A stretch of 64,000 nt of DNA from assembly GCF_000002865.3 (NCBI RefSeq), contig NW_001865086.1:97447-161446 (forward strand), given 5' to 3'. This document shows, piece by piece, positions 6,185-48,032 of this stretch. The DNA is from Monosiga brevicollis MX1 (lineage: Eukaryota). Every line of letters starts with the position of its first letter. The stretch's first letter is position 1. Under the pieces are notes generated by a model. That model saw only the letters and a program-made list of their open reading frames with translations. It ran no database searches and had not been told where the DNA came from. The translations under genes and the position numbers were made by a program.

Positions 6185-7400
6185 TCACACTGCCTCGAGT
6201 TTGGCATCATTCGATCGTGTATAGACCACCACCAGCTCGGGATAGATGTGTGTATGGTCGTAGATGGCCACCTGGTGAAATTCGCCACGCGGTGTAGCGA
6301 TAACCGAGTCATGTCTGTAGAAAAGGTCACAGGCAATCGTCGTGTCAGGTCCAAAGTCAACCAGAGGTACTCGCGGCTCAGAACCAACATGCAACGTGTC
6401 TGTCCGGCGCACCACTCATTGTCTGTTTGCGCCTGGCGAGAGCAGTGGGGCCAGTGCTCCACAAGGTGGTGCTTCATGGACCTAGGCATGACCCAACAGA
6501 ACTTGCGTGACAGTGAGCATGCGCTTGCCGTCGAGTCAACCGTTGGTGTACCGATGACTCTCTAAAGTCATACACAAAAGCGCATCTGGCATCAGACCAG
6601 CAGCCCATTTCGATCAAACCAGTCGCAGTTTCTAACCCCACCTTGCCAAAAATGATCGAACAAGTAAACACCGAAATCAAAACCGGTGGCTCGCGCGGCT
6701 ACCAGCAAAGCGCGGCCCAAGCGCACAATCTTATCGCGCAGCGATTGCTCGGACATGAAGCAGCCGGCGCTCTTGACAGGGTGTATCACGAAGCAAAGCT
6801 GGACAGCCCGAGAGCACATCCGAGGTGGTGGTTACAAGTCGATTATAGTGCCCCTAACTTGTGAGGCGGTGCAGCATCTTCCGTCGCTTGCTGCTGTACC
6901 GTTCCCACAGCACGGGGGTTTTGCACACGTGCCACCCGCTGCCCTGCAGCGTTACCTGGTCCTAGCCCGTCAGCACTCAGCTGCTGCAGCAGTTCAGCCA
7001 CCTAGTCACACAATAAATTCAAACCACACGGCTTGTCAAGATCAAAAGAACAGTATTATTATGACGATATCAGCAAGCAACGCACCTCTGACACGAGCTC
7101 GGGTGCGTCGCGTAAAACGTCAATGGCTGGCCCAACAACGTGGGCGTTGCACACTCTAGCCGGCGCTGAAGAGAGTTGGGCGCTGCTTGAGATTTGTTGC
7201 AAGCAGGCCCATGTTTCCTTGTACAAACCGCTCGTCGCGTCGCACATCTGCACACAAACGCCACATGTCAACAACAACAACAACAATAAGATTTGCCTCG
7301 GGCGAGAGGTCAGTCACTGGGTTCCAACTGTTGGAATTTCGCAAACTCCCAATGCTTCTCGGGTTGCTGTCAACTCGGCCATACTGCACTTTGCCATCTA
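6185..7400 (-). pseudogene. Pseudogenised 3' part (kinase end plus PARP exons) of the ANK-kinase-PARP gene family (copy C)
   Basis: Exon-by-exon homology to copies A and B (MCDATSGLYKE...[53 protein letters not shown]...LLGHA*; DSVIATPRGEFHQVAIYDHTHIYPELVV). In-frame stops, frameshifts and catalytic E to Q. Confidence 0.85.
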
Positions 7401-11200: not shown

Positions 11201-13536
11201 CAACGCTTCGGGCGCTGCCAGTGCCTGGTCGAGCGCGCCGAGGGCCTGGGTGGTGGTCGCCTGGAAGGCAGGCCAGTCCATGGCAGGAAACTCTGGTGGC
11301 GCTTCATCGATGGTCCTCTGGATGTCCGCAACTGCCGTTGCAAGATTGGGGGTTTGTTTGGCGGCACCGCTGATAAATGCATCGAGGTGAGGGAGAGTAT
11401 GGCTGGTGGTGCGCGTGGGCAAGAGGGGCCTAAGCCAAGTATCCACCGCCACCACAACAGAGGCCGTGGTCTAATGGAGGGTTGTGTGGTGCCCATTGGT
11501 CGTGATGAGGTTGGATGAGGCCGTAGGAATTGGGGTAGTAAATGCATTGGGGAAAACAAGATGGGGGAGCAGGCTCACCTCGAGGGTGGGGGTGGTGGGC
11601 AGAGGCGGTAGCCAGGCGGAAGGCGGTGCCGGCGTGGGCGGAGCGAGTGGTGCGGGTGGTTGTGATAGGCGAGCCTCGTGAGCAGCAAACACGGGCTCCA
11701 GCTTGTCGCCATGCCCGCGTTGACGTCCGTAATCGAGGGGCGTGTTGCCATCCTGAAAACATGTGATTGGAGCGTGTGAGGTGGGCAGCGACGTGAGGGC
11801 TGAGTTGGGCGACGTGCATTTGCTTTTACATAACAAAGGCGAGGTGACAATGCTTTGAAGTGTGCCGGAGCCGCCAGACGCGCGAGTGGTGTGCAAATGG
11901 TGCGGGCAGGTAGCAGGGGTCCGAAAGGAGGCCCGCTTGGAGAGAAGGAAAAAAAAAAACGAAAAAAAAAAAGAAAGAAAGAAACGGCGCGTGTGCCGGG
12001 GGCAAAAGTGAAGGCACGGCCACCGAAAGCCGTTGGAGCGAGCGAGGGAGGCAGAGGCGTGATGACAAGGGGCTGGGGATGGATCAGAAAAAGGGGAGAG
12101 CGAAAACGGCAGGCGGAAGAGACAAGTGGGGCACGGGGCGCACCGGCAAAGGGCGGACGCAAAACGGGGAAAGAAGAGGGACAGCGGGAAAGAAGACAAG
12201 GAGCCAGGGGGGGAGAACGGACGCGCACGGGTGGGCAGGGTGTTGCGGAGAGGAGGGACGGGGGCAAAGGCGACGGGGCAGCGGGAGCAGGAGCAGCAGC
12301 CAGAGGGGTAAAGGGGGGAAGAGGGAGGTACTGTACTGACGTTGTCCTTGGCTTCAGTATCAACACCGTGCTCCAACAGCATCTCCGCCACCTTGACACG
12401 ACCGTTATAGCAGGCCCAGTGCAGTGGTGTATCGCCATACTGTGGGATGATGCATCAGCATGACGTACAGGTACAGCATCATCATCATCAGCATCATCAT
12501 GGGGTACAGGTGCACCGTCATAGGGGGGTAAAGGGGGAAAGAGGGAGGTACTGTACTGACGTTGTTCTTGGCTTTAGCATCAGCACCGTGCTTCAACAGC
12601 ATCTCCACCACCTTGACATGACCGTTACGGCAGGCCTTGTGCAGTGGTGTATCGCCACGCTGTGGGATGATGCATCAGCATGGCGTACAGGTACAGCATC
12701 ATCATCATCATCATCATGGGGTACGGGTGCAGCATCATATGGGGGGTAAAGGGGGGAAAGAGGGAGGTACTGTACTGACGTTGTCCTTGGCTTTAGCATC
12801 AGCACCGTGCTGCAACAGCATCTCCACCACCTTGACATCACCGTTACGGCAGGCCCAGTGCAGTGGTGTATCGCCATACTGTGGGATGATGCATCAGCAT
12901 GACGTACAGGTACAGCATCATCATCATCAGCATCATCATGGGGTACAGGTGCACCGTCATAGGGGGGTAAAGGGGGAAAGAGGGAGGTACTGTACTGACG
13001 TTGTTCTTGGCTTTAGCATCAGCACCGTGCTTCAACAGCATCTCCACCACCTTGACATGACCGTTACGGCAGGCCTTGTGCAGTGGTGTATCGCCACGCT
13101 GTGGGATGATGCATCAGCATGGCGTACAGGTACAGCATCATCATCATCATCATCATGGGGTACGGGTGCAGCATCATATGGGGGGTAAAGGGGGGGAAGA
13201 GGGAGGTACTGTACTGACGTTGTCCTTGGCTTTAGCATCAGCACCGTGCTGCAACAGCATCTCCACCACCTTGACATCACCGTTACGGCAGGCCCAGTGC
13301 AGTGGTGTATCGCCATGCTGTGGGATGATGCAAACATGCAATACACACTCCAGTGACATATTCAAAGTGTAACCAATATCACACAACATCATACCAAACA
13401 GCATACGTACCCGATCATCTTTGTATTGGGCAGCATCTCGTATACGTTGTTGGTCCCAACTGGTCAACAGCTGAAGCGCCTTTTGTGGATCTAATGTAAG
13501 ACACGCCATGTACAGCTGCTTTCCATCATCACTCAT
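8282..13536 (-). CDS. Ankyrin repeat - helical/coiled-coil - protein kinase - PARP-type ADP-ribosyltransferase fusion, copy A (about 1208 aa, 12 exons)
   Basis: Exons, all GT-AG and in frame: 13536-13411, 13317-13219, 13098-13000, 12878-12780, 12659-12561, 12439-12341, 11752-11579, 11470-9437, 9334-9161, 9093-8722, 8637-8492, 8387-8282. Motifs: GxTPLHxAC ankyrins; kinase [82 protein letters not shown]. Confidence 0.9.
12341..13317 (-). repeat. Tandem exon+intron array: five 99-nt ankyrin exons, period about 220 bp, with a 439-bp higher-order duplication
   Basis: Exon starts 13317, 13098, 12878, 12659, 12439; near-identical introns of 120/121/120/121 nt. Confidence 0.95.
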
Positions 13537-14394
13537 GGTCACGGTATCTCTCTCTATTCACCATCCGCTTCAAACCGCTTTGCTTGCTTCTCTATCCACC
13601 ACCAATCTCATGAGCCCCCTCCAAATACAACTCGTCTGACAACCCAGAATTCGGACTGGGATTCGACAGGCGCGCCGTTTCCAAAACGGCAGCCGGTCAG
13701 CGGGCTCCTTGCTCTTCTCTGCCTGGTGCACCAAACGACTCACCTTTGGACAACAGTTCTCGGTGACAGTGGCGAGGACCGGTGTACTTGGTTGCCCAGC
13801 GCACGTTGTCGACTGCGAGGTGAGATCAGTGAGGTCAACTGAAAGCAAAAAACAAAAAAATGGCAGCGGTGCTTTCAATCAAAACGTTCTGGCGTCGCTG
13901 CAAGGCCCCGACCAGGAAAGTCCGGTACCAAGCACAAACGATCAGTCACCACGCACACACACAGAAAGCAAGACACGTCAAGCAGCCCGCCGATGCCGAT
14001 ACCGATACCGACACCGCTGCCAAAAAAGGGCACCACCAACAACAAGAAGAAGAAGAAGAAGAAGACGAAGTCAAAAGCACAAGCAAAAGCAAAAGCAAAA
14101 GCAAAAGCAAAAGCAAAAGCAATGGCAAACAACCGAAAGGAAGAAAAATGCAAGCAACACAACACACACGTTTACACCTTTTTCTTCTTCTTTTTTAATT
14201 TTTTTATTTTCAAAGAAGAAAAGCACTGGACCGGGCTCATGGGTGGTAAGGACGGTTTGCGCCGGTCAATCGGATCGCCACGCCCAACGTACCTGCCAAA
14301 TCTATTGGCTCGGCCGATCGAGCCCCCGTGTATTTCTTTCTTCTGCGCACCAACCACACCCATAGAGAGTGTAATTCGTCTCAGTTTTATGTAT

Positions 14395-14560: not shown

Positions 14561-15215
14561 CACGCCTTGTGTACGAACAACGTGACAGCTCGCCTCTTAC
14601 ACCACAAAAATGGGGCTCGTACCTACAACATGTACTGCCCCTTTGCCAGCCATGCCATTCCAAGCCCGTTGGCTAACTTGCCTGGTCATACCAATCTTAT
14701 TCCCCGCCCAAACGTGAGCGACCATTCCTGACGGCGAGCTTTAGGTTCATCGCCATGGCGGTCATGGTGCTGCTCGTTCCCTTTGAACGCGCGTTTGCCT
14801 TCTGGAGCATTGCAACGGCAACCTTCACAAACCGATATATCTCCTGCAATAACTTACATCATCATTCCTAGCAGAAATACATTAACTTCTCGTATATCGA
14901 AATAAACGGTTTAAAGAAGAGTAAAAAACCCGAGGTGCATTTCCCCTGCAGCAACTTGCATCTTGTTCAACATTGCGAGGTTCGGGGCAGCAAGGGCAGC
15001 GGGTGACGGGACTGAGGAAGGGACGCGGGTGAGGAGCAAGTGTAGCAGAGACTCTTTTTAANNNNNNNNNNNNNNNNNNNNNNNNNNNNNNNNNNNNNNN
15101 NNNNNNNNNNNGTTTGGAAACCCCACCCCGACAGAAGACCCATCATGTTGCGCGCTTGTAAATTTAAAAATGGACACACTCGTATACAAGCGGGAGTTGG
15201 CCCTCCCCGGAGATT

Positions 15216-18090
15216 TCAATTGTAGGCGCGATCGCGGCCGTGGGGCTCGCTGAGCAACGCCTCGTAATTGTCCGGCCCTTGGGCCACAATGCCCAGAGGA
15301 TTGATCTTGCGATGGGAACCTACAGCAACATACAAAGCGCCAGAACACACACGCGCGCGCACACACAAACAATTGTGTCGTCAGCTCAGCTTGGACACGC
15401 TCATAAACCTTGGACACTTTGGCCTCAGCCCATCTCTCACGCGCTGTCGGCACGGATCGTACCAAAGTAGTGCTTCTTGGTCTCCAGCGGGTTAAACGTC
15501 GCGCTGACACCCTCCATCTGGTAAATCTCCCGCGTGTAGCCCCACAGGTTGGGGTAGTCCACCACGCGGCGCTTGTTGCACTTGAAATGGGTATGGTATA
15601 CGATATCAAAGCGCAGCTACTCATCCAATAACCCACACCAAATGAGCACATCGACATCACGTCGATTGGTGTGTGCGGTTGCTTTCGAGCCAAGGAAGAA
15701 AAAAAATAAAACGTACCAAGGTGGTGACCAAGCGAATGTCCGAAAGGGTCAGTCGGTCGCCACAGAGATAGCGCTGCTTGCCCAACAACGCCTCGACCTT
15801 GTCCAAAGCGTCAAACAGCTTGGTGCAGGCCGTATCGTAGGCTTCCTGGCTGCCCGCAAAGCCACAGCGATATACGCCCTGAAAATGGGCCCAGCACGAG
15901 ACACACGAGTTCAAATCAGCTGCACACCCCCAAAAACTCTGTTTTGATACAAGACAGTGTCTGCCACATACATCGTTGATGTTGGGATACACGAGCTCGT
16001 CAATCTCGGTCATGGCCGATTCCAAATCGGCCGGCTCCAGGTCCAGCTCGGGACGCTTGGCCAAATCGTTGAACTGTGAGTTGAACATGCCTAAAGGTCA
16101 AGGATATGTGCACGAGTCAGGCACCACACCAAGAGGTGAGCGCCACAAAGAGAACAGATCATCGGAAGAAATCCTCAAGTTGTCCTTGAAAAGGACAGAG
16201 GAAAGTTGTCTGATTGGGGTTTTTTTTTTTCTTTAAAGAAAAAAAGGCCAAGGGGTGGCGCGCGGGAGGCTTGGGGGCAGGCTGACGCACGGATGATTTC
16301 GCTGCTTTCATTGTTAACAATGGTCTAAAAAAATGATCGCGAGCCCGCGGCATGCTTGATGAGATTGCGTCCGGGACGCATTGCAGGCCCGTGGAGGATG
16401 AACCAACCTGAGTCTTCTTATCAAAGAGGACGGGCACGGAAAGCTTCTTGTACGGATAGCCGGGCTGTGCCAAATTGTAAACCTGGCAGATCATCGGTAC
16501 ATGATGGAAATAGGGTCATGAGGGCATACTGGAGTGTGATGCCGCNNNNNNNNNNNNNNNNNNNNNNNNNNNNNNNNNNNNNNNNNNNNNNNNNNCTGTC
16601 GCGGAACCTGTCATGGAGCCAATGACCACAATGGCTCCGCTCGCCTCGCACGTGATCCAGGGGTTCCGAGCAAACCTCCAGAAGAAGTCGCAACGCCTAC
16701 AGACTTTTGGCTTTGATCCTTACTTCTCGGCCTACATTGCTGTGACCATGCACATGAACCATCAGCTCAAGGCGAACCTGGCAGCAACCTGGTCTTCCCA
16801 TTGGGACCATGTCATGGTACCCTTCCTCGAAGGTGCCCTACACCGCAACCTTGCAAGTCCGGACATCACCCCAGCATCCTTGGAAGACGCCCGAGCCCAC
16901 CTGCACAAACAGTTTGGTTTCCACTTGGGAGTCGCCGCCCTGGCCCGAATGTTGGACGCTTCGACGAGCAATTTTACTGGACTCGCTGAGTTCGATGAGT
17001 GGGTGCAGGCGGTTGATTGCATGTTTCAGCACGAACCGCTTGAATACACCATGCTGACCAAGCTCCAGATGCTGTGCAAGCTCCAGCGCCAGTGCACTTG
17101 CAGCCGACTGGTGGAGCGTCTCGCCACTGCGGCACACCAGGCTACATCTGGTCCAGCAACCACGTTGACTAGAATCGTGAAAGAAGCTCTCGATGGTTAC
17201 GTCCCGACTCGTGATACTCTTTTCAGCGTGCCAAGCAACCGGACGGCGCACAAGGGGCCGACGATCCACTCGGCCGCCGGATGCCGCAAGCGGCCTCTGA
17301 AAGAATAGGCCAAGGAAGGTCTCGGAGGGGCAATGGCTGTTGCGTACGTCGTGAAGATACTCAAACTCTGGGTGAAGAGGATCGGGGTCCTCCTTGGTAA
17401 AGGGCCAGCCGCGGTAGGGCCGGCCATCATCGGGCCACTCCAGAAACCAGCCTAAAGCCGACGCGGGCCATGGAATAGCGCAGTGGTGTGGTGCCAACGG
17501 CGTGAGGGCAGGGCGTGGTCCTTGGGAAGTGTGGATGAGCAAAGCTGTGGCTGAGGGAGGAAGGGTGCGAAAAGCTAACCAAGCATGGTGACGGAGATGA
17601 CGTCTTCGAGGCCCTTGAGCGAGCGCATCAAGAGGGCGCGGTGGGCCCAGGGACAAGCCCATGCCACGTCTAAAAAGGATGGGCCGAGATGAGTCGCAAG
17701 GCACTTTCCAAAGCTCGAAGCACTGTCCAAAGCATGTGTGTGTGCATGCACGCGCAAGGCGAGGGGATGGCAAAAACACAGTCGAGACGCACAGAGGTGG
17801 TAGCGACCGGCTTCGGCCGGGTACTTTTCCGAGCCAATGGTGTCGTGAAAGGCCGTAGGGGGGCGACGAAAGGCACCAGCCTTGGCCTCTTCCTCAGACA
17901 CGCCAAATTTGTTTTGGTCCGAGCCCTCGACCTACGCACGAATTTGGAAAGAGCCAGCGTCAGAAGCTGCAAGTGGCCAGGATGGCAGACACCAATAGGC
18001 GAGAGCACCAACGTGGGCAAATTGATCCGAGGCAGTGGTGCCAAAGATGTCGCCTTGGCTGGCGCCGACGTTATCCTTGTTAGCAGCCAT
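15216..18090 (-). CDS. Glutathionyl-hydroquinone reductase / Xi-class GST (YqjG/ECM4 family), multi-exon
   Basis: [19 protein letters not shown] active site; [71 protein letters not shown]; stop TGA 15216-15218. Start exon MAANKDN (18090) is inferred. Spans an N gap. Confidence 0.9.
16596..17308 (+). other. Antisense ORF (at least 231 aa, open into the gap) nested in a GST intron; possibly a gag-like insertion
   Basis: Uninterrupted ORF inside intron 16483-17347, which is far longer than neighbouring introns. [14 protein letters not shown] loosely resembles the retrotransposon gag helix. Confidence 0.35.
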
Positions 18091-27949: not shown

Positions 27950-28023
27950 TCCTGCGTGGCGCAATTGGTTAGCGCGTTCGACTGTTAATCGAAAGGTTAC
28001 GAGTTCAAGCCTCGTCGCGGGAG
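27950..28023 (+). tRNA. tRNA-Asn(GTT), copy 1
   Basis: Cloverleaf: acceptor TCCTGCG/CGCGGGA, D stem GCGC/GCGC, anticodon stem TTCGA/TCGAA with loop CTGTTAA, T arm ACGAG-TTCAAGC-CTCGT; downstream T-run. Confidence 0.97.
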
Positions 28024-28752
28024 CTACACGATTATTTTTTGTCTTTTTGTAACGTAGAGACGGTGAATGCTATTTTGCTATGGGGGAAATGCGTGTGGAG
28101 TACTTCAGGCTGATGCTCTGGCGAATGGTGCTAGGTGGGGCACACGATGGATCCAGAGCTTGTTCTGATGTTCTCTTTTTTTACATGTTAAGCCGGGGGG
28201 CTATAATCGTCGATGCTGAGCCCCGTGTTAGTTTTTGTCTAATTGTACCGTATTCGGCCAATATTGAGCGGGCAGGGTGAGCAAGACATTCCACTTCGTG
28301 TAATCAGATCGAATGCTGTACAACAGTGAGAGTATGCGTCGGACGGACTCTGAATAGCGCACGGCGACGATCCTGGAGTCTGCTTTCTGCCGGCTGCGTT
28401 GGCTGGCTACAAACATCATTCGACGTGGTCAATTACTAAAATTTTAAGCGTAACCTATACGCCACCGTGGAAAACAATTGATTGGTCGGAACAAACTTGG
28501 TGTACACGCTCGACAAACACGTATACTGACGTACCAGGCATGGTATATCCCAACGGCAGCGCCTGTTACAAGTCACGTCCATGCTATACTCTCCTCAACT
28601 GCAGATATGAGCCCTGATCTGACTCGAACAGCAAGGGAAAAAAAAGCAACGAAAAACCAAATGTAATTACACCGAAAAGGGAAGCTGACGATTTTTTAAT
28701 TGTAAGACAGTGTTTATAAATGGAATTATGCATGCGGGTATTAACAAGTGAT

Positions 28753-28826
28753 TCCTGCGTGGCGCAATTGGTTAGCGCGTTCGACTGTTAATCGAAAGGT
28801 TACGAGTTCAAGCCTCGTCGCGGGAG
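28753..28826 (+). tRNA. tRNA-Asn(GTT), copy 2
   Basis: Identical 74-nt sequence to copy 1; downstream T-run. Confidence 0.97.
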
Positions 28827-29208
28827 CTACACGATTATTTTTTGTTTTTGGTCGACCCGATCATGAATGAGAGCTTCAAATGAGAGATGAGAGAGAGCTT
28901 GGCACAGCGGCGGCAGTGGAGAGCTCTCAGACCGCTCTTCGTGTGTTTTTTTTTAACATCCAGGATGAAAATTTTTTACATGTTATTTTTTTAACATCCG
29001 GATGTAAATTTTTTTTTGCTTCTTGCCACCATGCCACCACAGGCCTCCCCCATGGTAACGCGGCCGTCATATGAAGAGCGCATGCCCACGACCACCACAC
29101 CCACAATTGACCACTGGGTTCAATTTACAAATTCAGACTCGAGAATGACGATACGAAATCAGTCTCTAGTGTCCAACGCGGCAGTCTCATCCCATCCCGA
29201 TAGGTTGA

Positions 29209-32509: not shown

Positions 32510-33951
32510 CTAGCTGGGCCGTGGTTCAGGTGTGGGTGTGTGAAAAGCGGCCATGTAGTCGCTTAAAGTTGGAATGGTCAGGCGCTCGTAAAAGTACTTG
32601 GCCACAGGACTGGACTGCTCGTCACACACGATCATGTTGCTGAGAAGGACTGCCACGTACAGGTAGCCGGTAACTGGTCGCATCTGCATGCGCATGGCGC
32701 GAGGATTGGCAAGGCCTTCGAAGCGAGAGAATACCCCAGTTCCCGGTGCGCCAAAGCACCAATCAACGGCCACTCTTACGCTGTCGAGCTGTTGGTCGTG
32801 AGCCACGGCTTCCTGCTCGTTGTTTGCCCCTCGCCTAGTCTGTGCGGGTCGCACAATGCGCTTCGACTCGGGGTGCGCCTGGTCACCCAGGATACACCAC
32901 GGCGCTCGCTCCGGCCACAGCTGACCAAGGCGTCCCTCAAGACCCAAGCTCGCCAGCATGACGGCATCCTGCGTGGGACCTGAGGGTAGGCAGATGGTTG
33001 CAATGAGGTTGTGGTATGTGAGTTTGCGCTCGGCTCAATCAAGGGTAGGCTGACCTCGAAACGGCCCATAAAAGCTGATGATGATGCCGTTGGGCGCCAA
33101 AACTGCTTGATATCGGAGCGCGTGCGCCTGACATGGCAGCAGCACGTGAGCGACAAATGATTGCGAGACCAAGGACATGCTACGCATGCACCCACCTTGT
33201 CCTTGCCAACGCAGAACCATCGCTGGGCCTCGCCTGCGGGTCGGGCGATATGATGGTCGGTTCGGTCAATAAAGGCACAGATGCCTGCAGTTGGAGGATG
33301 GCGGGTTGCCACAGCAGCTGCGCCTTGCTTGGCCCAGCTTGGTTGAAAGTAGCGCTCGTCAAAGTTCATCCGCTCCTGTACCAGCGCTGTCAAAGCCAGG
33401 ACAAACGTGTTGACGACCTTTGACAGTTTTTGCGAGGTCCATGATAAGTTGAGCTCTCGCACGGCGTCCACCAGTCGCAAGGGGCGGTGGAACAGGGTCA
33501 GAAAGGCGACCAATGCGTCTCGCACAGGTACAGGCACGGCGTTGTCTGGTAGGGCGGGCAAACTGGCAGCAATGCGTTCAAACTGCGCACGATCGGCCAA
33601 GCCACACACTCGCGGCCACCAGGCGTCGTCCAACAGATCAAAAACGACGTGAGGCGTGCCCCCTGCGCAGATGGCAGACTTGTAGTGCGGGTAGAGACTC
33701 CAAAGCTCGGCTTGTAGGCCACGCGCTAGTTCTGAGGCCATTATCAGTCCCTCCCGGATGCCCTCCTCGTTGATTTGACCCAGATTTTCGAGATGGCTCA
33801 GGTAATCAACAACGAGGTCGATGGTAGCGAGGTATAGCACATTTCCGTTGCGCTCAATCTCTCGAATGATGGCGCATTTTTGGCTTGTCGTCAGACGCAC
33901 ATCCCGCTCCACGCGCCGGCGCGGTATCCGTCTGGTTCGCGGCCGCGCCAT
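32510..33951 (-). mobile_element. PIF/Harbinger-type DDE transposase (DDE_Tnp_4/HARBI1-like) gene with two introns
   Basis: AFIDRTDHHIARP...GKDK|AHALRYQAVLAPNGIIISFYGPFR|GPTQDAVML...ILGDQAH...DSVRVAVDWCFG follows the Harbinger motif order (IDGT..RP; K..H...Q; GP..G..D; GD.gY; R..VE..FG). TIRs not identified. Confidence 0.8.
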
Positions 33952-34246
33952 GCTTTTTGCCTGTCGTAATGCCCAAGGTGATAATGATAATACCACTGAT
34001 CAACAGCCAAGCACACTGCGTTGCGCGGTCGGCGGGTGGCGTGAGTGACAGTAGGCGGCTGGGCCACAGCAAGCAGCACAGCCCGGGCCTGGGCGTTCGC
34101 CATCATCCTGGAGCCCATCACGGTCAACAACGGGACGAGCGAACACAGTGACAATCACGCAAATCAATTGTCAGAAAAAACAAAATGATAATTAAATCCA
34201 TGTTCTATATATGTAATATTATGATCAGCAGACTTCAACAAGTGAT

Positions 34247-34320
34247 TCCTGCGTGGCGCAATTGGTTAGCGCGTTCGACTGTTAATCGAAAGGTTACGAG
34301 TTCAAGCCTCGTCGCGGGAG
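34247..34320 (+). tRNA. tRNA-Asn(GTT), copy 3
   Basis: Identical 74-nt sequence; shares about 45 bp of upstream flank with copy 1. Confidence 0.97.
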
Positions 34321-35367
34321 CTACATGATTACTTTTTGTCTTTTATCGCTCTCCTTTTATTGCTCTCCTTCTTCTTCTTCTCGTCCTTCTTCGACAAGCT
34401 TCCGTGCACTGCCTCTTCTCTTTATTAGTCTTTAGCTTTGTATTTGTCTCTCTCGCTTTGTTCGACTTTACCTTGTTTCCTGTTGTTACATGTGGTAGTT
34501 GTGCTTTTCCTTTGTGTCTTTGCTCTTTATTTCTCCCGACCAAACCATGAACGCCCTTTGTTACCAAGTGTCATCGCCTACTTTTTTTTTTTTCTTTTTG
34601 TTCTTTGACTTTCGCTCCACTGTTGTGTTAGGGGCAAATGGGGATGGCTGGCTGGTGTTGGATCGGGTCGGAGCGTTAGGGGTTGGTGGGTGTGCTTGGG
34701 CCGGGTCGGGTCGAGCTTGTGCAACAGGGTCATGAGCTTGACTGTTTCTTGATTGAGAGGGTGTGGATGAAATGTTGTTTCTCCAACCGACACGGTTCTG
34801 TAGACCGGAAGTGGCATTTTACTTTGTACCTTTCCCGTTTCAATTTCCTCTGTTTGCTTTGTGAATTCACCACAAACAGATCACATCCAAAAAAATGGCT
34901 TTTACTCGCTTTGTAGCCTAGCACAAATTAATTCCGTACATGGTGATCAACGCAAAGGCTGGCATCGACAATCAACGCCCCTACAGTCTTCGAGGTATCA
35001 AGGCGTGCCGCAACCGTGTGCTGGAAGCAGCGATTAAACTCAAAATGCTGAGAGACCAACGGGCGTCGACAGAGTGCTCCAATGATTGCCTGAACGGCTC
35101 ATGCTGATGATGATGATGTCACGACACTCCGCATCGCCCGAGGAGCAGAAACCAGGAGCAAGTGAAAAAAAAAAAAAAAAAAAAAAAAAGAAGAAGGACA
35201 TGAAGCACAGTCATTGAGCGCGCGCCTCGCACTTGTCTGACCAACTTTTCTTGGACGCGCGTTGCCATGAGCTTAAAGCTGGCTCGCTCGCCGTCAGGAA
35301 TGGTGGCTCACATACCCGGGCGGGGGATAAGATTGATGTGACTGAAGGGGCAGTTAGCCAACGGGCT

Positions 35368-35702
35368 TGTAACGTCATGGCAGGCAACGAGGCAGTACAC
35401 GTTGTACGTTCAAGCGCCAGTTGTGCGGTGCTTTGGAAACCACTTGTAACAGGCGAGCTGTCATGTCGGGCAAAGGGGCGATACAGGTTGTACGTTCACA
35501 AGCCCCAATTTTGTGGTGCTCTAGAAGCTGCTCGTAACGGGTCATGTTTGGCAAAGGGGCAGTACACGTTGTACGTACACAAGCCCCAGTTTTACAGCAC
35601 CTTGGAAGCTGCTCGTAACAGGCGAGCTGTCATGCCAGGCAAAGGGGCAGTCCACGTTGATACGAACACAAGCTTGACGGCGCTTTGGAATTTGCTTGTA
35701 AG
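35368..35702. repeat. Degenerate tandem repeat, four units of about 78-88 bp
   Basis: Units start GTAAC near 35369, 35446, 35534 and 35615 and share GTCATG..GGCAAAGGGGC..TACACGTTGTACG..CAAGC. Confidence 0.8.
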
Positions 35703-36372
35703 ACTGTTGTTGTTTTGACTTTCCTCTCCGAAAATAAAAAAGTAAAAAAGAAGAAGAACAAGGTGTAAACGTGTGTGTGTGTGTGTTGCTTGCATTTTCC
35801 TTCTTCTGGCCTCTCTCTTTGGCTTGTTGCCATTGCTTTTGCTTTTGATCTTCTTCTTCTTCTGCTTCTTGTTGGTGTTGCCCTTTCTTGGCAGCGGTCT
35901 CGGTATCAAAATTGGCATCGGCGGGCTCCTTGATGTGTCTTGCTTTGTGTGTGTGTGCGTGGTGACTGATCGCTTGTGCTTGGTACGGGACTTTCCTGGT
36001 CGGGGCCTTGCAGCGACGCCAGAACGTTTTGATTGAAAGCACCGATGCCATTTTTTTGTTTTTTGCTTTCAGTTGACCTCACTGATCTCACCTCGCAGTC
36101 GACAACGTGCGCTGGGCAACCAAGTACACCTGCCCTCGCAACTGTCATCGAGAACTGTTAACCAAAAGGTGAGTCGTTTGGTGCACCAGGCAGAGAAGAG
36201 CAAGGAGCCCGCTGACCGGCTGCCGTTTTGGAAGCGCGCGCCTGTCGGATCCCAGTCCGAATTCCGGGTTGTCAGACGAGTTGTACTTGGAGGGGGCTCA
36301 TGAGATTGGTGATAGATAGAGAAGCAAGCAAAGCGGTTTGAAGCGGATGGTGAATAGAGAGATACCGTTGCC

Positions 36373-37959
36373 ATGAGTGCTGATGGAGAGCAGCTGTTCA
36401 GTGCGTGTTGTTCATCAGATCCACAAAAGGCGCTGCAGCTGTTGACCAGTTGGGACCAACAACGTATACGAGATGCTGCCCAATACAAAGGTGGTTGGGT
36501 ACGTATGCTGTTTGGTATGATGTTGTGTGATACTGGTTACACTTTGAATATGTCACTGGATGGGGTGACGTTATGGTATAACATGGGACATATACTGCAT
36601 GTTTGCATTTTGCCACAGATTGGCCATACACCACTGCACGGGGCCTGCATTAACGGTCATGACAAGGTGGTGGAGATGCTGTTGAAGCACGGTGTTGATA
36701 CTAAAGCCAAGGACAACGTCAGTACAGTACCTCCCTCTTCCCCCCCTTTACCCCCCCCTATGATGATGCACCCGTACCCCATGATGATGATGATGATGAT
36801 GCTGCTGTACCTGTACGTCATGCTGATGCATCATCCCACAGGGTGGCCGTACACCACTGCACGATGCCTGCGATAACGGTCATGACAAGGTGGTGGAGAT
36901 GCTGTTGCAGCACGGTGCTGATGCTAAAGCCAAGGACAACTCGGTCAGTACAGTACCTCCCTCTTCCCCCCTTTACCCCCCCTATGATGCTGCACCCGTA
37001 CCCCATGATGATGATGATGCTGATGCTGTACGTCATGCTGATGCATCATCCCACAGAATGGCTATACACCACTGCACAATGCCTGCTATCACGGTCATGT
37101 CAAGGTGGTGGAGATGCTGTTGAAGCACGGTGCTGATACTGAAGCCAAGACCAACGTCAGTACAGCACCTCCCTCTTCCCCCCTTTACCCCCCTCTATGA
37201 TGGTGCACCCGTACCCCATGATGATGATGATGCTGTACCTGTACGTCATGCTGATGCATCATCCCACAGGGTGGCCAAACACCACTGCACTATGCCTGCG
37301 ATAACGGTCATGACAAGGTGGTGGAGATGCTGTTGAAGCACGGTGTTGATACTGAAGCCAAGGACAACGTCAGTACAGTACCTCCCTCTTTCCCCCCTTT
37401 ACCCCCCCTATGATTTTGCACCTGTACCTCATGATGATGATGCTGATGCTGTACCTGTACGTCATGCTGATGCATCATCCCACAGGGTGGCTATACACCA
37501 CTGCACGGGGCCTGCATTAAGGGTCAAGTCAAGGTGGTGAAGATGCTGTTGAAGCACGGTGTTGATACTGAAGCCAAGGACAACGTCAGTACAGTACCTC
37601 CCTCTTCCCCCCTTTACCCCTCTGACTGCTGCTCCTGCTCCCGCTGCCCCGTCGCCTTTGCCCCCGTCCCTCCTCTCCGCTACACCCTGCCCACCCGTGC
37701 GCGTCCGTTCTTCCCCCCTGACTCCTTGTCTTCTTTCCCGCTGTCCCTCTTCTTTCCCTTTTTTTCTTCCGCGCTTTGCCGGTGCTCCCCGCGCCCCGCC
37801 CTGCTCCCGCTGGTGTCTTCCGCCTGCCGTTTTCGCTCTCCCCTTTTTCTGATCCATCCCCAGCCCCTTGCCATCACGCTTCTGCCTCCCTCGCACGCTC
37901 AAGCGACTTTCGGTGGCCGTGCCTTCACGTTTGCATCCAACACACGCGCCGTTTCTTTC

Positions 37960-37993
<34 letters not shown>

Positions 37994-40900
37994 CTTCTCT
38001 CCAAGCGCGCCTCCGTTCGGACCCCTGTTACCTGCCCGCACCATTTGCACACCACTCGCGCGTCTGGCGGCTCCGGCCCACTTCAAAGCATTGTCACCTC
38101 GCCTTTGTTATGTAAAAGCAAATGCGCGTCGCTGCCCACCTCACACGCTCAAATCACATGTTCTCAGGGTGGCGAAACGCCCCTCGATTACGGACGTCTA
38201 TGCGGGCATGGCGACAAGCTGGAGCCCGTGTTTGCTGCTCACGAGGCTCGCCTATCACAACCACCCGCACCACTCGCTCCGCCCACGCCGGCACCGCCTT
38301 CCGCCTGGCTACCGCCTCTGCCCACCACCCCCACCCTCGAGGTGAGCCTGCTCCCCCATCTTGTTTCCCCCAATGCATTTACTACCCCAATTCCCACGGC
38401 CTCATCCAACCTAATCACGACCAATGGCACCACAACCCTCCATTAGACCACGGCCTCTGTTGTGGTGGCGGTGGACAAGTGGCTCAAGCCGCTCTTGCCC
38501 ACGCGCACCACCAGCCATACTCTCCCCCACCTCGATGCCTTTATCAGAGGTGCCGCCAAACAAAACCCCAATCTTGCAACGGCGGTTGCGGACATCCAGA
38601 TGACCATCGATGAAGCGCCACCAGAGTTTCCCGTCATGGATTGGGCTGCCTTCCAGACGACTACCACCCAGGCTCTCAACACACTCGACCAGGCACTGGC
38701 AGCGCCCGAAGCGTTAAGCAACCGCTTGAAGCAATTGGACCCCAACACTGACAACCTAGAATCAGTGCTGCAAGAGCTGCACGGTGTCACTGCTGGTTTT
38801 GAGCTGCAGCCGGTGCTTCTCGAGCTTCAGGACGTGCTGGCAGCGTGCCCCGCTCCACCCACCACGCCAGTGATCGCGCCCAAGAAGCCACCCACCGACC
38901 TAGCTTCGGCCCTGAGAAAAGTCATCGTTCTGAGCGGCGTGGAACCCAAGCGTCAGGAGCTGCTCACCAGCGCCAACAGCAACCTCAAGCGCCTCGTGCT
39001 GGCCTTGATTGATGCCCTGGGCGCCGTGGCAAGAGCGGGAACTACCGACACAATTCATCGCGTGGAGACGCTACGGCAGTGCGCGCAATGCGTGGATGCA
39101 AGTGCACCACCTCCAGCCGAGGCATTGCCCGGGGCCTGGGAGGAGCTGTGCCAAGCGCACGAGAAGCTGAGCCTGCTCGAGCAGAACGGTCTTGAGCAAA
39201 TTGCTCAGTGGCAACCACCTCCAGACTACGAGCATCAGGATTGGTACTTGGCGTTTGTGCACCACGAGTCGCAAGCTCTGCTGCAGCAGTTGCAAGACAT
39301 GATCGACTGGCAGGCCACGACGCTCTCCGTGTTGACCTCGTGCATGAGTCACGTGGACAGCTTGACCCAAGGCGTTGATGATGAATTGGTTGCTGCCAAC
39401 GAGGAACTGACCAAGGTGGAGAATGAGATGCAAGGTATCAGCGCGGCATTGCAGCTGGTGCCCGAAGCTGTTCGGTCTGGTCTCGAGCAGGAACTCAAAA
39501 AGCTAGAAACGCGACGCGACACCTTGCGACAACAGTTATCAGATCAGCCACACGTGGACCACGTCGCAGAGCTCGCCCAGCTGCTGTACCAACACTTTCC
39601 AGCGCTGCTGGTCTTTCTGCACCCTGAACAAAGCACGCTGGGAGCGCGCCTCCGCACAGTGCTTGGGCCCGACCTTCCAGCCAGTCTTATCTTGGAGGCC
39701 ATGACCGAAGTGGATCGCACATTGTCGCTCTCCAGCCTGGGCCAGCTTGATCTTCATTACAACCAAAACCACAAGGTGTACAAGGCCCGTGCCGCGCTGA
39801 AAGATTCTGGGGAACAAGATTTGGCCGTCAAGGAGTATGCATTTGCTCGGCAACACAAGCAGGATCAGTGCCGTACATTCTTGCGCGAGCTTCGCGCCAT
39901 GCGCCAGCTTCAGCACCCACACATCATCCCGGTCCTCGGCGCGCTCGTGGACGTACACAGTGGCCACCCGAGCGCCTACCTGGTGCAGCCATGGTGTGCA
40001 CAGGGTGATTTGCAGCAGTGGCTCAGCAAGGCACGGCACCTGGCCACCTCGACCGTGATTTCGAATCTGATGAATCAGCTGCGCACGGCGCTGGCGTTTA
40101 TGCATAGCAAGGGCTTGGTGCATCGGGATGTCAAGCTGAGCAACATCATGTTGGACGGTGCAGAGGACCAACCTGTTGTGCGGCTGGGCGATTTTGACAT
40201 TGCCAAGGCCGCCGCTGAAGCCACCATGCTACCATCTACGGCCACCGCATCGTCGGGCACGGCGGGCTATGTGGCACCGGAGGTGCTATTTGGAATGGGT
40301 CGTGTGGGAGCACGCCCGGCACAGGATGCCTTTTCCTTTGGCTGCGTTCTCTACAACACGTACATGTATCCACAAACGGTGCCACCTGCTCAATCGCGAA
40401 CCGATGAGGTTGTGGGTCATTGCAGATGGAATTTCCAAGCGGGAGATGGTGCCTTTAGCTTTCCTCATTTGGCGGCCGAGGTCAGTCAATTATTATTTTT
40501 TTCTCTATGATTTTAAGACGCTCTGGTTGTCGTCGTCGTCGTCGTTGTTGTTGTAGTTGCTCATACCTGTGTTTCTGTGCAGATGTGCGACATAGTGGGC
40601 GATCTGTACAAGGAAACGCGAGCCTTGCTGGCAGCAGATCCAAAGCAACGGCCAAGCCTTTTCAGCGCCGGGCAAATCGCAGAACGACCTGTCACGACCC
40701 AAGTTGTTGGGCCAGCCATTGATGTCTTGCGCGATGCGCCCGAGCTCATTTCAGAGGTGCGTTGCTTGTGATTTTTTTTTCTCTCTTCCACGAATCGTCT
40801 GATTTGAACCTACTGGGTGGCTAGGTGGGTGAGCTACTGAAGCAGCTGAACACCGATGGGCGGGGACCAGCGAATATCACAGTGCAACGAGTGGAGCGCG

Positions 40901-41651
40901 TGCACAACCCCGTGCTGTGGGAGCGCTACAGCGTCAAGCGACGCGAAATGTTGCATTGCATCAAAAGTCAGGAGCACTATGATCAACTCCAAACGTCCAC
41001 ATTAAATGCACCCTCGGGCTCTCCAGCTTTGTTTCGAGATACACCCTGTCAAGAGCGCTTGTTGCTTCACGGCATCGCCCCTGACACAATGTTGCGCGAC
41101 AAGATTGTGCGCCTGGGCTTTGACTATCGTTTCGCCGGTCGCCGCAGGGGCCACAAGTATGGTCTTGGCGTTTACTTGGCCGACCATCCTAGAAAGGTGT
41201 GGTCGAATTGTTGGTTTGCAGGGTTCTACGTGTGTGTCCTCACATTGCTTTTTTGGCGCTGTGTGTCTACTTGAACCTGGGTGTAGAGTCACCATTATGC
41301 GACGCCCGGAGCAAACGGCGAGCGGATGCTCATTATTACGCGAGCCCTGTTGGGCCGTGCCTATGTCCATCCTTCGCCTCGTTCTCGGGCACTGGCTCCT
41401 CCACTGCTGCCCGCTGCACCCAACAACGAGCGGTTCGTCGAACAAAATTTTCTGATTCTGGCATGCTGCCCGACGTCTCCTGCCCGCCTTCTGCCCGTCT
41501 TCTGACCTAGCCTGACCTAACCGCCACGTCTGCCTTTTCTTTTAGATATGATTCGGTCATCGCGACGCCGCTCAATGCGTTTCGCGAGGTGATTATCTTT
41601 GAGAATGCTCAAATCTATCCTGAGCTGGTGGTGTACTACACGGCCGATTAG
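36373..41651 (+). CDS. Ankyrin repeat - helical/coiled-coil - protein kinase - PARP-type ADP-ribosyltransferase fusion, copy B (about 1209 aa, 12 exons)
   Basis: Exons 36373-36498, 36619-36717, 36842-36943, 37057-37155, 37270-37368, 37486-37584, 38168-38341, 38447-40480, 40583-40756, 40825-41196, 41287-41432, 41546-41651. Same motifs as copy A ([51 protein letters not shown]). Confidence 0.9.
36619..37584 (+). repeat. Tandem exon+intron array: five ankyrin exons (99, 102, 99, 99, 99 nt)
   Basis: Each exon is flanked by CCACAG and GTCAGTACAG; introns of 124/113/114/117 nt differ mainly in C-run and (GAT)n length. Confidence 0.95.
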
Positions 41652-43817: not shown

Positions 43818-46800
43818 ATGCTGCTGCGCCTAGTTTTAACCCTGGCCGTGGCCACCACGGCCGTGCACGCTGTACGTGGATGGGGGACCAAATTATCTGC
43901 AATGTCTTGCAAACCCGGGCTCGAGAAAAATCGGACCGCTCTCACGATCATCGCCCCGCTCACCTGGCTGCTCTGGTCCATGATGTAGTTTTGCGGCAAC
44001 GGCGTCATTGGCAATGGCGAGACCTGTGTACGTCCAACCGCGCTCGAGATTGAGACCTTGCCCAGTCACTGCAAAACGACCAAACTCACACGAACCGATC
44101 CGGCTCCTCCGTGTTGATAGGATGATGGCAATCGCTTCAACGGCGATGGCTGCTCCGGCGCTTGCATGATTGAGGATCGATTCACTTGCGTGGGTGGCCA
44201 AGAGGAAGGATCACCATCGGTTTGCCTGCCTGATGTGCCCGACTACTGCACCCCCCGGTACGCCGCACACTCGGCTTGTCCAGACTTGTGAAATTCAGCC
44301 GGCACAGCCTCTTGCACTGCCCGCCGGCCTCCTCATCCCTTGCCCATTTTGATTCACCAGGAACCCTTTTACCACGACCACCCGTGGGCGCCCCGCTACG
44401 ACCACAACATCCACGCGTCGCCCCATGACGACCACCGCATCCTCCTGCCCTCCCTTTGATCCTTGCAACTGCAAGCCCAATGCCGAGGCTGAAAACTACT
44501 ATGATCGTGACGGCTGCCTTCAGTGCCGTTGCGTTGCCACGGGCCCGGTCGAAACCACCACCACACGTCGTCCGGCTACCACCACCACCACTACGACGCG
44601 CCGCCCAACTACCACCACCACTACGACGCGCCGCCCAACTACCACCACCACCACGCGCCGCCCAACTACCACTACTACCACCACGCGCCGCCCAACGACG
44701 ACAACTACTACTCAGGCGCCATGCCCAACATACGATCCCTGCAATTGCAAGCCCAATGCCGAGGCTGAAAATTACTATGATCGTGATGGCTGCCTCCAAT
44801 GCCGCTGCGTTGCCACGGGCCCCATCGAAACCACCACCACCACCACTCGTCGGCCGGCCACCACCACCACAACCACCACCACCCACGCTCCTACCACCAC
44901 CACTACCACCACACGCCGTGCCCCGACGACGACGACGACCACCACACAGGCCGCACCGGAGACAACGACGACCACCACACGCCGCCCAGTCACAACCACG
45001 CGTCGCGACGACGACAATGATCACAACGGAGATGATGACGACAATGATGACAACGACGCTCAATGCAAGAGCAACCCGCTTGATTACTGCGAGTAAGCTG
45101 CACTTGAATCTCACCCCGTAGTCACACTCTGTGTACCTCATGCCCTGAGGCGTAGTTCTAATGGCTTACAGCAAGGGTTTGACTCACTTTGATTCGATTT
45201 TTTCCATAGCTGCGACTCGACTGAAATTCCCGTCTTGAAGATCAACAACAAGGGCTGCTTGGCTTGCAAGTGCGAAAGCCTGAACGGCGAAGAAGAAGAC
45301 GACGACGAGTCTTCCAACTGCAAGCCAAACCGCTGGGATTACTGCGAGTAAGTCTTCATTGGGCCGTCGACCTGTGCGTCCAATCACGACCTCGCTCACT
45401 TCCTCTGCTTGTTTTGGACTGTGACTCCACAGCTGTGCCTTTGGTGAGGTGGCCGTGCCCAAGATTAACAACAAGGGTTGCGAAGCCTGCAAGTGAGTGA
45501 TGGCTTTCCTCGTGTCTGACAGAAATGTGACTGGACGGCTTGCACCCACGCACACATGCACACTGCCCTTGACATAATTTTTGCTCTGCGCTCACAATTG
45601 TGTTGCTTTTTCACCATCAAGGTGTATCACGACCGAGGAATATGAGGAGCAGCGAAATCGCCGCTCGGTCATGGAGCATCCCGATGCTGATAAGTTTGAC
45701 GTGTGCAAGTACGTTTGAAATCTGGCACACCCCTTTGCCATACGAATTTCGTTTCGAGAGCTCATGCTGATACTGACCCGTGATGCAGCTGCAAGGAAGA
45801 TGCCGTGAGTGTATGGGAATTCACCAACGATGGCTGCGCCACTTGCTCGTGCAAGCACCCCGCACTTTGCTCGGACAGGATCGAGCTTGCAACAGGCGAC
45901 GACTGCTCGGTACGCCCCTGCTTTGGCCACAAGCAAGCATGGCGGGCCATTGCCACCTTGCTGTAGCCAAACACAAGCAAGAGCTCGCAGCCTTCCACTA
46001 ACATTGTGCCTGCTGCTCGCACCTATTGTGATACAGTGTGGTACCAGGGATTGCTTTGAATGTGAATACCGCTTTGGCGAGCCCGGGGCTTGTCAGGTCT
46101 GCCGCCGCGGCACAAAGCTGCTTGATGGCGAATGCTTGGACGAGTGCCCCGATGGCTTTGAGGTGGCAGGATCGGGTAAACGTCATTTGCAATGCGTGCT
46201 AGCACCCCCAGCGCCTACTGGTACTTCTACCTCGACCTCGACCTCGACCTCGACCTCGACCTCGTCGTCGTCCTCGTCGTCGTCCTCGTCGTCAACCTCT
46301 TCTTCCTCCTCCTCGTCATCTCNNNNNNNNNNNNNNNNNNNNNNNNNNNNNNNNNNNNNNNNNNNNNNNNNNNNNNNNNNNNNNNNNNNNNNNNNNNNNN
46401 NNNNNNNNNNNNNNNNNNNNNTGACCTCCACCTCGACCTCGACCTCCACCTCGACCTCGACCTCGACCTCCACCTCGACCTCGACCTCGACCTCCACCTC
46501 CACCTCGACCTCCACCTCCACCTCCACCTCCACCTCGACTTCCACCTCCACCTCCACCTCGACTTCCACTTCCACTTCCACTTCGACCTCGACCTCGACC
46601 TCGACCTCGACCTCAACTTCCACTTCCACCTCGACTTCCACCTCGACTTCCACCTCGACTTCCACCTCGACTTCCACCTCGACTTCCACTTCCACTTCCA
46701 CCTCGACCTCGACTTCGTCAGAAAATCCCGATGCCAATCCTGGCGGGCCTGGTGGCAACCCAACGCTATTCCCTCCTACGGACGAGCCCACGGATGAGCC

Positions 46801-48032
46801 CACGGATGAGCCCACGGATGAGCCCACTACGGAGGAAGAGACGCGCCCTCGAACCACTACCAGGGTCACGCGCGCGCCAACGACAACACAGCGTCCCGTT
46901 GTGACTACTACGAGCGCCGCCACTCGCCCGATGACGACGGGACGTCCCGACGGTCCCACGGCCGAGGCCCCTACCGATGAGCCCACGACGGAGGAGCCAG
47001 ATACTCGTGCGACCACTCGTGTAACGGCTCAGCCCACGCGCCCCGCCACCACTCGCCGCCCCGACGGACCAACCGATGAGCCCACGACGGAGGAGCCAGA
47101 GACCCGCGAGACCACTCGTGCCACACGCCCTGCCACCACTCGCCGCCCTGATGGGCCAACCAACGAGCCACCTACGGACGAGCCAACCATGGAGCCAACG
47201 GAGGAGGCTACGGACGAGCCGACCATGGAGCCAACAGAAGAGGCCACGGGTGAGCCGACCATGGAGCCAACAGAAGAGGCCACGGGTGAGCCGACCATGG
47301 AGCCGACGGGAGAGGCCACCGCCGAACCCACCAACGAGACTGAATGTGCCTTCTTCCAACCTTGCGACTGTGCCGATACCGAGACCGAGTTTTTGTCCGA
47401 GGATGCCGATGGCTGTCTGACTTGTGCCTGCCGCAACGCCAGCTGCCCACCCGTCGAGCCATGCAGGTTTGTTCTTCAGTGTCGTCTTCTTATTCATGAC
47501 GCCTCCCGTGCTTTTGAGCCAATTGTAGTTGCCACATGGCGCGCTGCCTCGTGTGTTCTGACCTCATGAAACGCTTGTTATCTGCCCGTGTGTGCTGTAG
47601 CTGTGGCGTTGATACATTCCCCGTCACTACCCAGGATGAGTTTGGGTGCGAGACGTGCTCATGCGTCAACCTGACGGGTGCTGAGATGGCGGGTGAGAGT
47701 GCCCTTGAAGAGGATGACTCGAGCAACGGATCGGACAATGGCACGGGCATTATCGTTGCGATTGTTGGCGGTGTTGCCCTGGTTGTACTAGCCGTTGTGG
47801 CCGTGGTCGTGGCTCGGTACGTCTTGTTGCTCGGCTCGCGCAGGGTGGGGTGTCATGGCTTCAGACTCACGCTTGCATGGGAATGCTTAGGTCGCGTTCT
47901 CAAGCCAAGCGCGCCTCTTCGTTTGAAGCCCAGAACCTGGAGTTTGATGAGCTTCAATCGGGGGACGCCGTCGTGCCCATTGCACCTGCAGCAGCTGGTT
48001 CGGAGGGCCTTGAATACGACGAGAACATCTAA
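43818..48032 (+). CDS. Type I mucin-like cell-surface protein with Cys-rich modules
   Basis: Signal peptide MLLRLVLTLAVATTAVHA; FCGNG...ETC|DDGN...GDGCS..C (Myxococcus-type Cys repeat/DUF4215-like); several antistasin-like D..GC..C.C modules; a furin-like Cys module; Thr-rich and (ST)n stalks; TM GIIVAIVGGVALVVLAVVAVVVA; short tail ending GLEYDENI. Spans an N gap. Confidence 0.8.
46222..46720 (+). repeat. Coding (ACCTCG/ACTTCC)n hexamer repeat encoding poly(Thr-Ser)
   Basis: Read directly; synonymous variation among units; gap 46323-46421. Confidence 0.9.

Follow-up and report, generated by a model that had tools for sequence, protein, structure and literature searches.

The ten ankyrin repeat exons of two paralogous genes of Monosiga brevicollis MX1 differ almost exclusively by amino-acid-changing substitutions, which raises the question of whether their variation reflects selection on ligand binding or has another origin. 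The window, i.e., the whole 64,000-nucleotide stretch of contig NW_001865086.1 that was analysed, is eukaryotic DNA rich in introns. Gene B lies on its plus strand and gene A on its minus strand. The domain order of both products (Pfam) is an ankyrin N-cap, five ankyrin repeats, a C-cap, a proline-rich linker, a helical region of ca. 425 residues, a protein kinase domain, and a PARP domain. The initial annotation had given 36619-37584 for its observation on the ten repeats; this interval holds the five exons of gene B, whereas those of gene A lie at 13317-12341 on the minus strand. The features of the two genes are as follows.

36373-41651, plus strand: gene B, 12 coding exons, open frame of 1209 residues
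36373-36498, plus strand: first exon of gene B, carrying the start codon and the ankyrin N-cap (open frame, GT donor)
36613-37620, plus strand: tandem exon-plus-intron array of gene B (period ca. 213 bp, 4.7 copies, 89% matches)
36619-36717, plus strand: ankyrin exon B1, 99 nt, phase 0
36842-36943, plus strand: ankyrin exon B2, 102 nt, with an extra codon ahead of the donor
37057-37155, plus strand: ankyrin exon B3, 99 nt
37270-37368, plus strand: ankyrin exon B4, 99 nt, the reference for contig alignment
37486-37584, plus strand: ankyrin exon B5, 99 nt
38168-38341, plus strand: C-cap and proline-rich linker exon of gene B, its junction with the following exon seen in run X9
38447-40480, plus strand: large exon of gene B, the helical region of ca. 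425 residues with a helical hairpin at its end, followed by the greater part of the kinase domain
40583-40756, 40825-41196, 41287-41432, and 41546-41651, plus strand: last four exons of gene B, end of the kinase and PARP catalytic domain
8282-13536, minus strand: gene A, intact paralogue of gene B, 12 exons, 1208 amino acids, same architecture
13317-13219, 13098-13000, 12878-12780, 12659-12561, and 12439-12341, minus strand: ankyrin exons of gene A
12440-13317, minus strand: recently duplicated two-repeat block of gene A, 2 x 439 bp, 2 bases differing

All ten repeats are encoded by single phase-0 exons with AG/GT ends. Introns of 113-124 nt follow every repeat exon except the last, and the exon-plus-intron unit measures ca. 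213-215 bp. Because each repeat occupies one phase-0 exon, units can be added, removed, or exchanged with the reading frame kept intact. In the contigs of run X9, which was taken as RNA-like from its splice joints alone, five of the modelled introns are missing, with the exons joined at the expected boundaries and the paralogues indistinguishable, and four joints at the last four exons of gene B agree with this run. The family is spliced as modelled; the X9 joints between repeat exons are uninformative on exon skipping, since the paralogues map ambiguously there. The NCBI model MONBRDRAFT_30380 (P0002) covers gene A with its repeats mis-spliced, and it fuses in part of a second, degenerate set of 3' kinase/PARP exons (6400-7290, minus strand, ca. 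70% identity) located just downstream of gene A. Among the family gene models retrieved, none corresponds to gene B.

The kinase domain matches Pfam Pkinase with an E-value of 1e-36 and keeps the catalytic residues AVK, HRD..N, DFD (for DFG), and APE, with no evident glycine-rich loop; by these residues it is predicted to be an active-type protein kinase. PF00644 scored above the cut-off in six of the eight family proteins scanned, and the other two are without that region. The PARP His and Tyr align with PARP15, and a Glu is found at the third triad position in alignments with PARP12 and ZAP, at weak E-values. On our assumption that these are the positions of the H-Y-E triad, the domain is a putative H-Y-E ADP-ribosyltransferase. 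Its closest PDB matches are PARP15, PARP14, PARP12, PARP10, ZAP, and tankyrase-2. The helical region was modelled as all-helical with low confidence (pTM 0.25) and had no Foldseek match at E <= 0.001. A fold assignment by VIA-align was rejected because it returned generic helical hairpins only (best Z 10.2 over 61 residues). The dN/dS values between genes A and B were 0.07 for the kinase, 0.28 for the PARP domain, and 0.43 for the helical region, all three of which are under purifying selection. Positive selection in the PARP donor loop was considered and discarded: A and B differ there, yet silent sites do so to a greater extent (pS 0.41 versus pN 0.14).

At least 24 gene models, all from Monosiga, belong to this family. 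The initial annotation had mentioned neither the family nor the downstream kinase and PARP domains, which provide the context of the repeat pattern. Searched against proteins of similar length, the large exon gave 19 matches, every one from Monosiga brevicollis; among longer proteins, its non-kinase part was matched in M. brevicollis only (5 of 67 matches), and the remaining 62 covered 14-43% of the query, namely the kinase. The search with the PARP region likewise gave Monosiga in 19 of 19 matches, with three further models in the same clusters. None of 145 non-family matches extended to the helical or PARP parts and nine matched the kinase, in a list of mostly long ankyrin proteins that is no proof of absence. 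Judged from these searches, which reach only relatives having short words in common, the family is likely restricted to M. brevicollis. Sequences near-identical, though not identical, to 982-1980 and ca. 17200-17400 (both minus strand) occur in the gene model P0004, where they are fused to another kinase-PARP member; this suggests that another part of the scaffold contains a segmental duplication with a family gene in it.

The ten repeat exons were compared codon by codon. In none of the 33 codon columns is one residue encoded by two codons, and 24 of the 99 nucleotide columns vary. A minimum-spanning count, set to favour silent paths, gave a minimum of 35 changes, at least 34 of them non-synonymous and at most one synonymous, whereas a synonymous share of 0.23-0.29 is expected under neutrality (P = 1.4e-3 to 9e-5). 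Exons A2 and A4 are identical and A1 and A3 are one base apart, leaving nine distinct exons; both likenesses fall within the 439-bp two-repeat block duplication, and one of the two bases that differ between its copies is in a binding-face codon (position 1, His/Tyr). The mean protein identity of the repeats is 0.75, without a silent difference, and is below the 85% cut-off of PMC4986451. All ten 15-residue strings and both cap comparisons listed in the initial annotation are present in the sequence, and positions 1, 3, 8, and 11, for which four to six residues each had been claimed, take six, five, six, and four. Its statement that the differences are only non-synonymous is correct for the ten exons; it does not extend to the family, in which silent alleles occur (6 of the 39 alleles listed for run X1 over codons 11-23, from 40 of 52 rows, are synonymous as single changes), nor to the N-cap exon. 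The latter has 12 non-synonymous and 1 synonymous differences between A and B, which concentrate in helix 1 of the cap and in the final three codons; the C-cap has 5 and 0, and the linker has no difference. In total, the caps differ by 17 non-synonymous changes versus 1 synonymous change, at sites equivalent to the variable positions of the repeats, as had been proposed. The proposed concentration of change at binding positions is qualified by 13 of the 34 non-synonymous steps, which lie outside the binder-library set, at exon positions 14, 15, 18, 19, 23, 26, 28, 29, and 32. Two exon positions that classic DARPin libraries randomise, 31 and 33, show no variation in the window, and earlier libraries kept position 8 constant.

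Because the repeats recombine and dS is near 0, selection was assessed by tree-free allele counts instead of site models. The eight exons having an internal intron were compared with their eight introns, and six library codons (standard positions 2, 3, 5, 10, 13, and 14) were fixed beforehand from PMC3308923. The library codons carried 20 changes in 14.8 sites compared with 19 in 112 ungapped intron columns (ratio 7.95, p 1.7e-9), whereas the other 27 codons, with 8 changes in 62 sites, did not exceed the introns (ratio 0.76, p 0.69). The ratio for exon silent sites was 0.27 (p 0.23); 0-1 synonymous changes were counted where 3.8 were expected from the introns (P 0.02-0.11), so that exon silent sites are no more variable, and perhaps less so, than introns. 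Such low synonymous variation inflates dN/dS. With introns as the neutral class, however, the excess at the library codons is independent of the unusually low dS. Codon site models, of which M7/M8 had been suggested in the initial annotation, strongly rejected neutrality in our own implementation (F3x4, 3-4 beta classes): 2dL was 76.8 for M8 versus M7, 74.6 for M8 versus M8a, and, for M2a versus M1a, 74.6 on the ML tree and 113.7 on a star tree; the fixed-sites omega ratio was 7.3 (p 1e-10). They placed every recurrently variable site in the selected class, including convex-side positions 23, 26, 28, 29, and 32. Per-site omega values from M2a and M8 were dropped as uninformative, being 100 or more or at the bound with dS near 0. 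The repeat samples are small and non-independent, with nine distinct exons, and the variation pattern is real and statistically robust.

The same positions stood out in repeats of other genes. The other gene models contained 38 repeats recognised by pattern, 37 of them well formed; removal of the model of gene A left 24 distinct repeats, which belong to 14 proteins. These come from imperfect models and were selected by a pattern that fixes some positions. Their highest entropies were at exon positions 11, 8, 12, 1, 3, and 33, corresponding to standard positions 13, 10, 14, 3, 5, and 2. The six library codons, at 7.95 times the intron density in the window, are thus also the top six of an independent set, and the excess of amino-acid change lies at exon positions 1, 3, 8, 11, and 12, plus 33 family-wide. 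These results support the positive selection on the binding face that had been proposed, and neither of the refuting outcomes named in the initial annotation, a dN/dS not above 1 at these sites or variable sites scattered over the framework, was observed. As described in PMC3308923, the six standard positions were randomised as one exposed surface in a binder library. The family repeat aligns with DARPins without a gap, and in a confident model of the ankyrin domain of one family member, positions 8, 11, and 12 map to helix 1 and positions 33, 1, and 3 to the loop; the predicted fold of P0070 is confident only in the ankyrin part (pLDDT 85-94, residues 11-130; overall mean 44). That the variable positions share one surface is taken from passages of PMC3308923 and PMC4986451.

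Exchange among the repeats would account for the constant scaffold. Exons and introns of the repeat units are near-identical across the genes, although elsewhere 12-27% of synonymous sites differ, in agreement with the concerted evolution proposed initially. The repeat introns are 0-10% apart, with the A-B likeness between genes equal to that within genes, and the four-gamete test is violated at 15 of the 28 informative pairs of sites, a count to which recurrent mutation can contribute. The repeats are mosaics, and recombination among their exons occurs within and between the genes. Outside the repeats, the last introns of A and B are 30-38% apart and the PARP donor-loop region (ca. 41130-41215) differs sharply, whereas intron 9 is identical; A and B therefore consist of old tracts interspersed with recently converted ones. 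Within the 64-kb window, no silent or inverted reservoir exons were found in introns. Unequal crossover and gene conversion between the ca. 215-bp exon-plus-intron units, within and between paralogues, would make the scaffold uniform and pass new specificity codons on to other repeats, and selection would retain the new ones. Concerted evolution combined with diversifying selection on the six binding-face codons is very probably the explanation of the pattern, and ligand specificity may be the selected trait.

This regime is known from fungal NLRs and brown-algal receptors; the architecture and the lineage are new. The similarity to fungal NLR repeat domains drawn initially agrees with PMC4986451, in which Podospora Pa_3_8560 and other fungal NLRs with highly conserved ANK, TPR, or WD repeats are described (Dyrka et al. 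2014). As reported there, these have repeats of high internal identity, concerted evolution both inside genes and between them, and positive selection at the inner helices of ankyrin repeats and at their beta-hairpin, all as in the Monosiga family; repeat-number polymorphism between isolates is documented in that paper for fungi, not for Monosiga. The family differs in having one exon per repeat with a conserved intron, and N-terminal repeats followed by kinase and PARP in place of NACHT/NB-ARC, for which Pfam gave no hit in any of the eight proteins at E <= 0.01. A separate group of proteins (P0095, P0158, P0102, P0105, P0123, and P0128) has ankyrin arrays that are highly conserved and vary at similar positions; three of the four that were scanned have NACHT matches (one above the cut-off), consistent with NLR-like proteins.

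The ROCO-LRR and NB-ARC-TPR candidate receptors of Ectocarpus, as presented in PMC3341825 (Zambounis et al. 2012), share with the family one exon for each repeat, exchange both within and between genes, diversifying selection, and a candidate function; gene birth and death, also described there, is a further likeness. On the other hand, the Monosiga repeats are ankyrin, not LRR or TPR, the partner domains are kinase-PARP, not ROC-COR or NB-ARC, and the window is without inverted or silent intronic repeat exons. DARPin libraries, according to PMC3308923 and PMC8683736, likewise place a constant, self-compatible 33-residue framework in modular number between caps and vary standard positions 2, 3, 5, 10, 13, and 14. 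The family differs from them in being natural and selected over generations, in the only moderate variability of position 33, and in framework changes (Cys at 12, Asp/Val at 17). Ankyrin-PARP combinations in M. brevicollis are mentioned in one sentence of PMC4245714. No passage on an ankyrin-kinase-PARP family was found in the searched portions of PMC2964712, PMC9688111, and PMC8592570; in the main text of the last, a paper on M. brevicollis immunity, the strings ankyrin, PARP, and ADP-ribos occur 0 times. No description of a NOD-less choanoflagellate ankyrin-kinase-PARP family was found in the literature searched, which consisted mostly of papers open without subscription.

As to function, the precedents in PMC4986451 and PMC3341825, in the parts available, link concerted evolution and diversifying selection on repeats to non-self recognition. 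From this and the evolutionary signature, we favour, with fair rather than strong confidence, an immune function: an intracellular pathogen sensor coupled to a kinase and a PARP. The ankyrin groove would bind a fast-changing foreign protein, such as a bacterial effector or one from a virus or parasite. The kinase and the H-Y-E PARP, which might modify the target or consume NAD+, would be activated by this binding, with association of the helical region as the likely link. Such a protein would be a single-chain sensor-effector in which groove binding activates or aims both enzymes. Choanoflagellate non-self receptors are scarcely known beyond STING, and they are relevant to how innate immunity arose in animals; with its likely restriction to one lineage and an arms-race signature that can be measured, the family is a concrete candidate for an immune role. 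It carries the repeat-diversification regime of fungi and brown algae, without a NOD domain, over to the sister group of animals, in combination with a kinase and with a PARP that has antiviral PARPs among its closest solved relatives. The family is also a natural experiment in binder design, in which selection varies the engineers' six positions, helix position 10 included. M. brevicollis is amenable to knockout and challenge, as indicated in PMC8592570.

The same selection could act on self targets: the ankyrin domain would recruit endogenous substrates, in the manner of tankyrases, selfish-element proteins, or kin or mating determinants, and the paralogues would have diversified to divide these among them; this is a serious alternative, although clearly the less probable one. 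The combination of ANK with an H-Y-E PARP resembles substrate recruitment by tankyrases (ANK-SAM-PARP), which, as outlined in PMC9688111, also have N-terminal ankyrin, a C-terminal PARP, and Glu as the third triad residue. The family departs from them by the inserted helical region and kinase, by 1-5 hypervariable repeats in place of a long conserved array, and by the lack of any SAM hit in its eight scanned proteins. Moreover, that account gives tankyrases as highly conserved and none as detected in M. brevicollis, whereas the family repeats vary within one gene. The fungal precedents include allorecognition (PMC4986451, in part), and a DDE transposase remnant is found nearby; conflict with selfish elements or kin, however, would still amount to non-self sensing. 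The 439-bp duplicate already includes a binding codon among its two differences, and such continuing turnover suits a moving target. A bolder version of the immune reading, in which interchangeable ankyrin exon cassettes are re-dealt among the 20 or more kinase-PARP genes by frequent recombination at mitosis and by exon skipping, with different sensors in different clones or single cells as the result, is rather unlikely. If true, it would be an NLR-independent, adaptive-like repertoire of DARPin-like sensors with a direct connection to phosphorylation and ADP-ribosylation.

Targeted hypermutation of the binding codons, DGR-like or AID-like, in place of selection on ordinary mutations is improbable. 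Many of the variable codons are NNT (positions 1, 3, 11, and 14), multi-base codon changes are common, and in DGR systems an AAT template would yield NNT codons. In contrast, the third-position A of two Thr/Pro codons is invariant in ten of ten exons, and third bases change solely where the residue changes. When contigs were aligned on exon B4 (441 from X1, contigs not being equal to independent events), codons 11 and 12 varied at each of their bases, so that G, T, and C positions vary family-wide as well as A. A blastn search of the window gave 12 rows, all inside the two arrays, and revealed neither a template copy nor an orphan exon. A diversity-generating retroelement is not supported, given the invariant silent A, the varying non-A positions, and the missing template in the window. 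Two marine metagenomes contain related exons that are flanked by the same intron sequence and are mostly less than 95% alike, in contigs that do not allow alleles to be told from paralogues; an exact 26-base framework pattern had no match in metagenome contigs or viral contigs.

Slightly less credible still is recent repeat duplication with relaxed constraint at tolerant ankyrin positions, without positive selection. In 437 unrelated ankyrin repeats, taken as a control from 101 of the 145 non-family proteins, the six library positions rank within the seven most variable, i.e., the variable positions are also the tolerant ones. The location of variation by itself is therefore weak evidence for selection, and the non-library codons indeed vary at the intron rate. 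However, the ceiling of relaxation is the neutral rate, and the library codons reach ca. 8 times the intron density. Ten other control-tolerant positions remain conserved: the library six retain 75-97% of the control entropy and these ten 16-66% (p 1.2e-4). Invariant four-fold codons lie 3-12 bases from variable ones, the third base varying in none of the 14 four-fold codons of B4, and because variable codons are interspersed with invariant ones at intervals of a few bases, neither neutral conversion tracts nor relaxation can explain the pattern. Relative to the control, the family repeats are enriched in Tyr, Arg, Asp, Trp, His, and Asn. An assembly artefact of collapsed or mis-joined paralogous repeats, at which the identity of A2 and A4, the almost identical 439-bp blocks, and the want of a contig spanning the whole stretch among those listed might hint, deserves the least credence, since errors would not spare synonymous sites, both frames are intact over ca. 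1209 codons, a 1611-nt contig of run X19 has 0 differences to 37270-37365 (its source is possibly shared), and the same positions vary in other genes; even so read, only the repeat count of gene A is in doubt.

Several other features were observed in the window. The ca. 680 bp before the two start codons (35720-36372 for B, 13541-14221 for A) are 88% identical and include a likely non-coding exon with a GT donor at 36169; this exon is translated in the public models of other members (P0003 and P0233). Further upstream of gene B, a tandem 81-bp unit is repeated 3.5 times with 74% matches (35373-35673), and a shorter version lies upstream of gene A (ca. 14600-14740); these arrays are possibly a repeated regulatory element of the family. 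Three tRNA-Asn(GTT) genes are situated between A and B on the plus strand (27950-28024, 28753-28827, and 34247-34321). The transposase remnant (32510-33999, minus strand) is probably of the Harbinger type, with a weak DDE_Tnp_4 match in 32513-33034 (E 1.7e-4, below the cut-off). Thr/Ser-rich, mucin-like reading frames with Cys-rich repeats at 44180-47570 probably constitute a surface protein gene.
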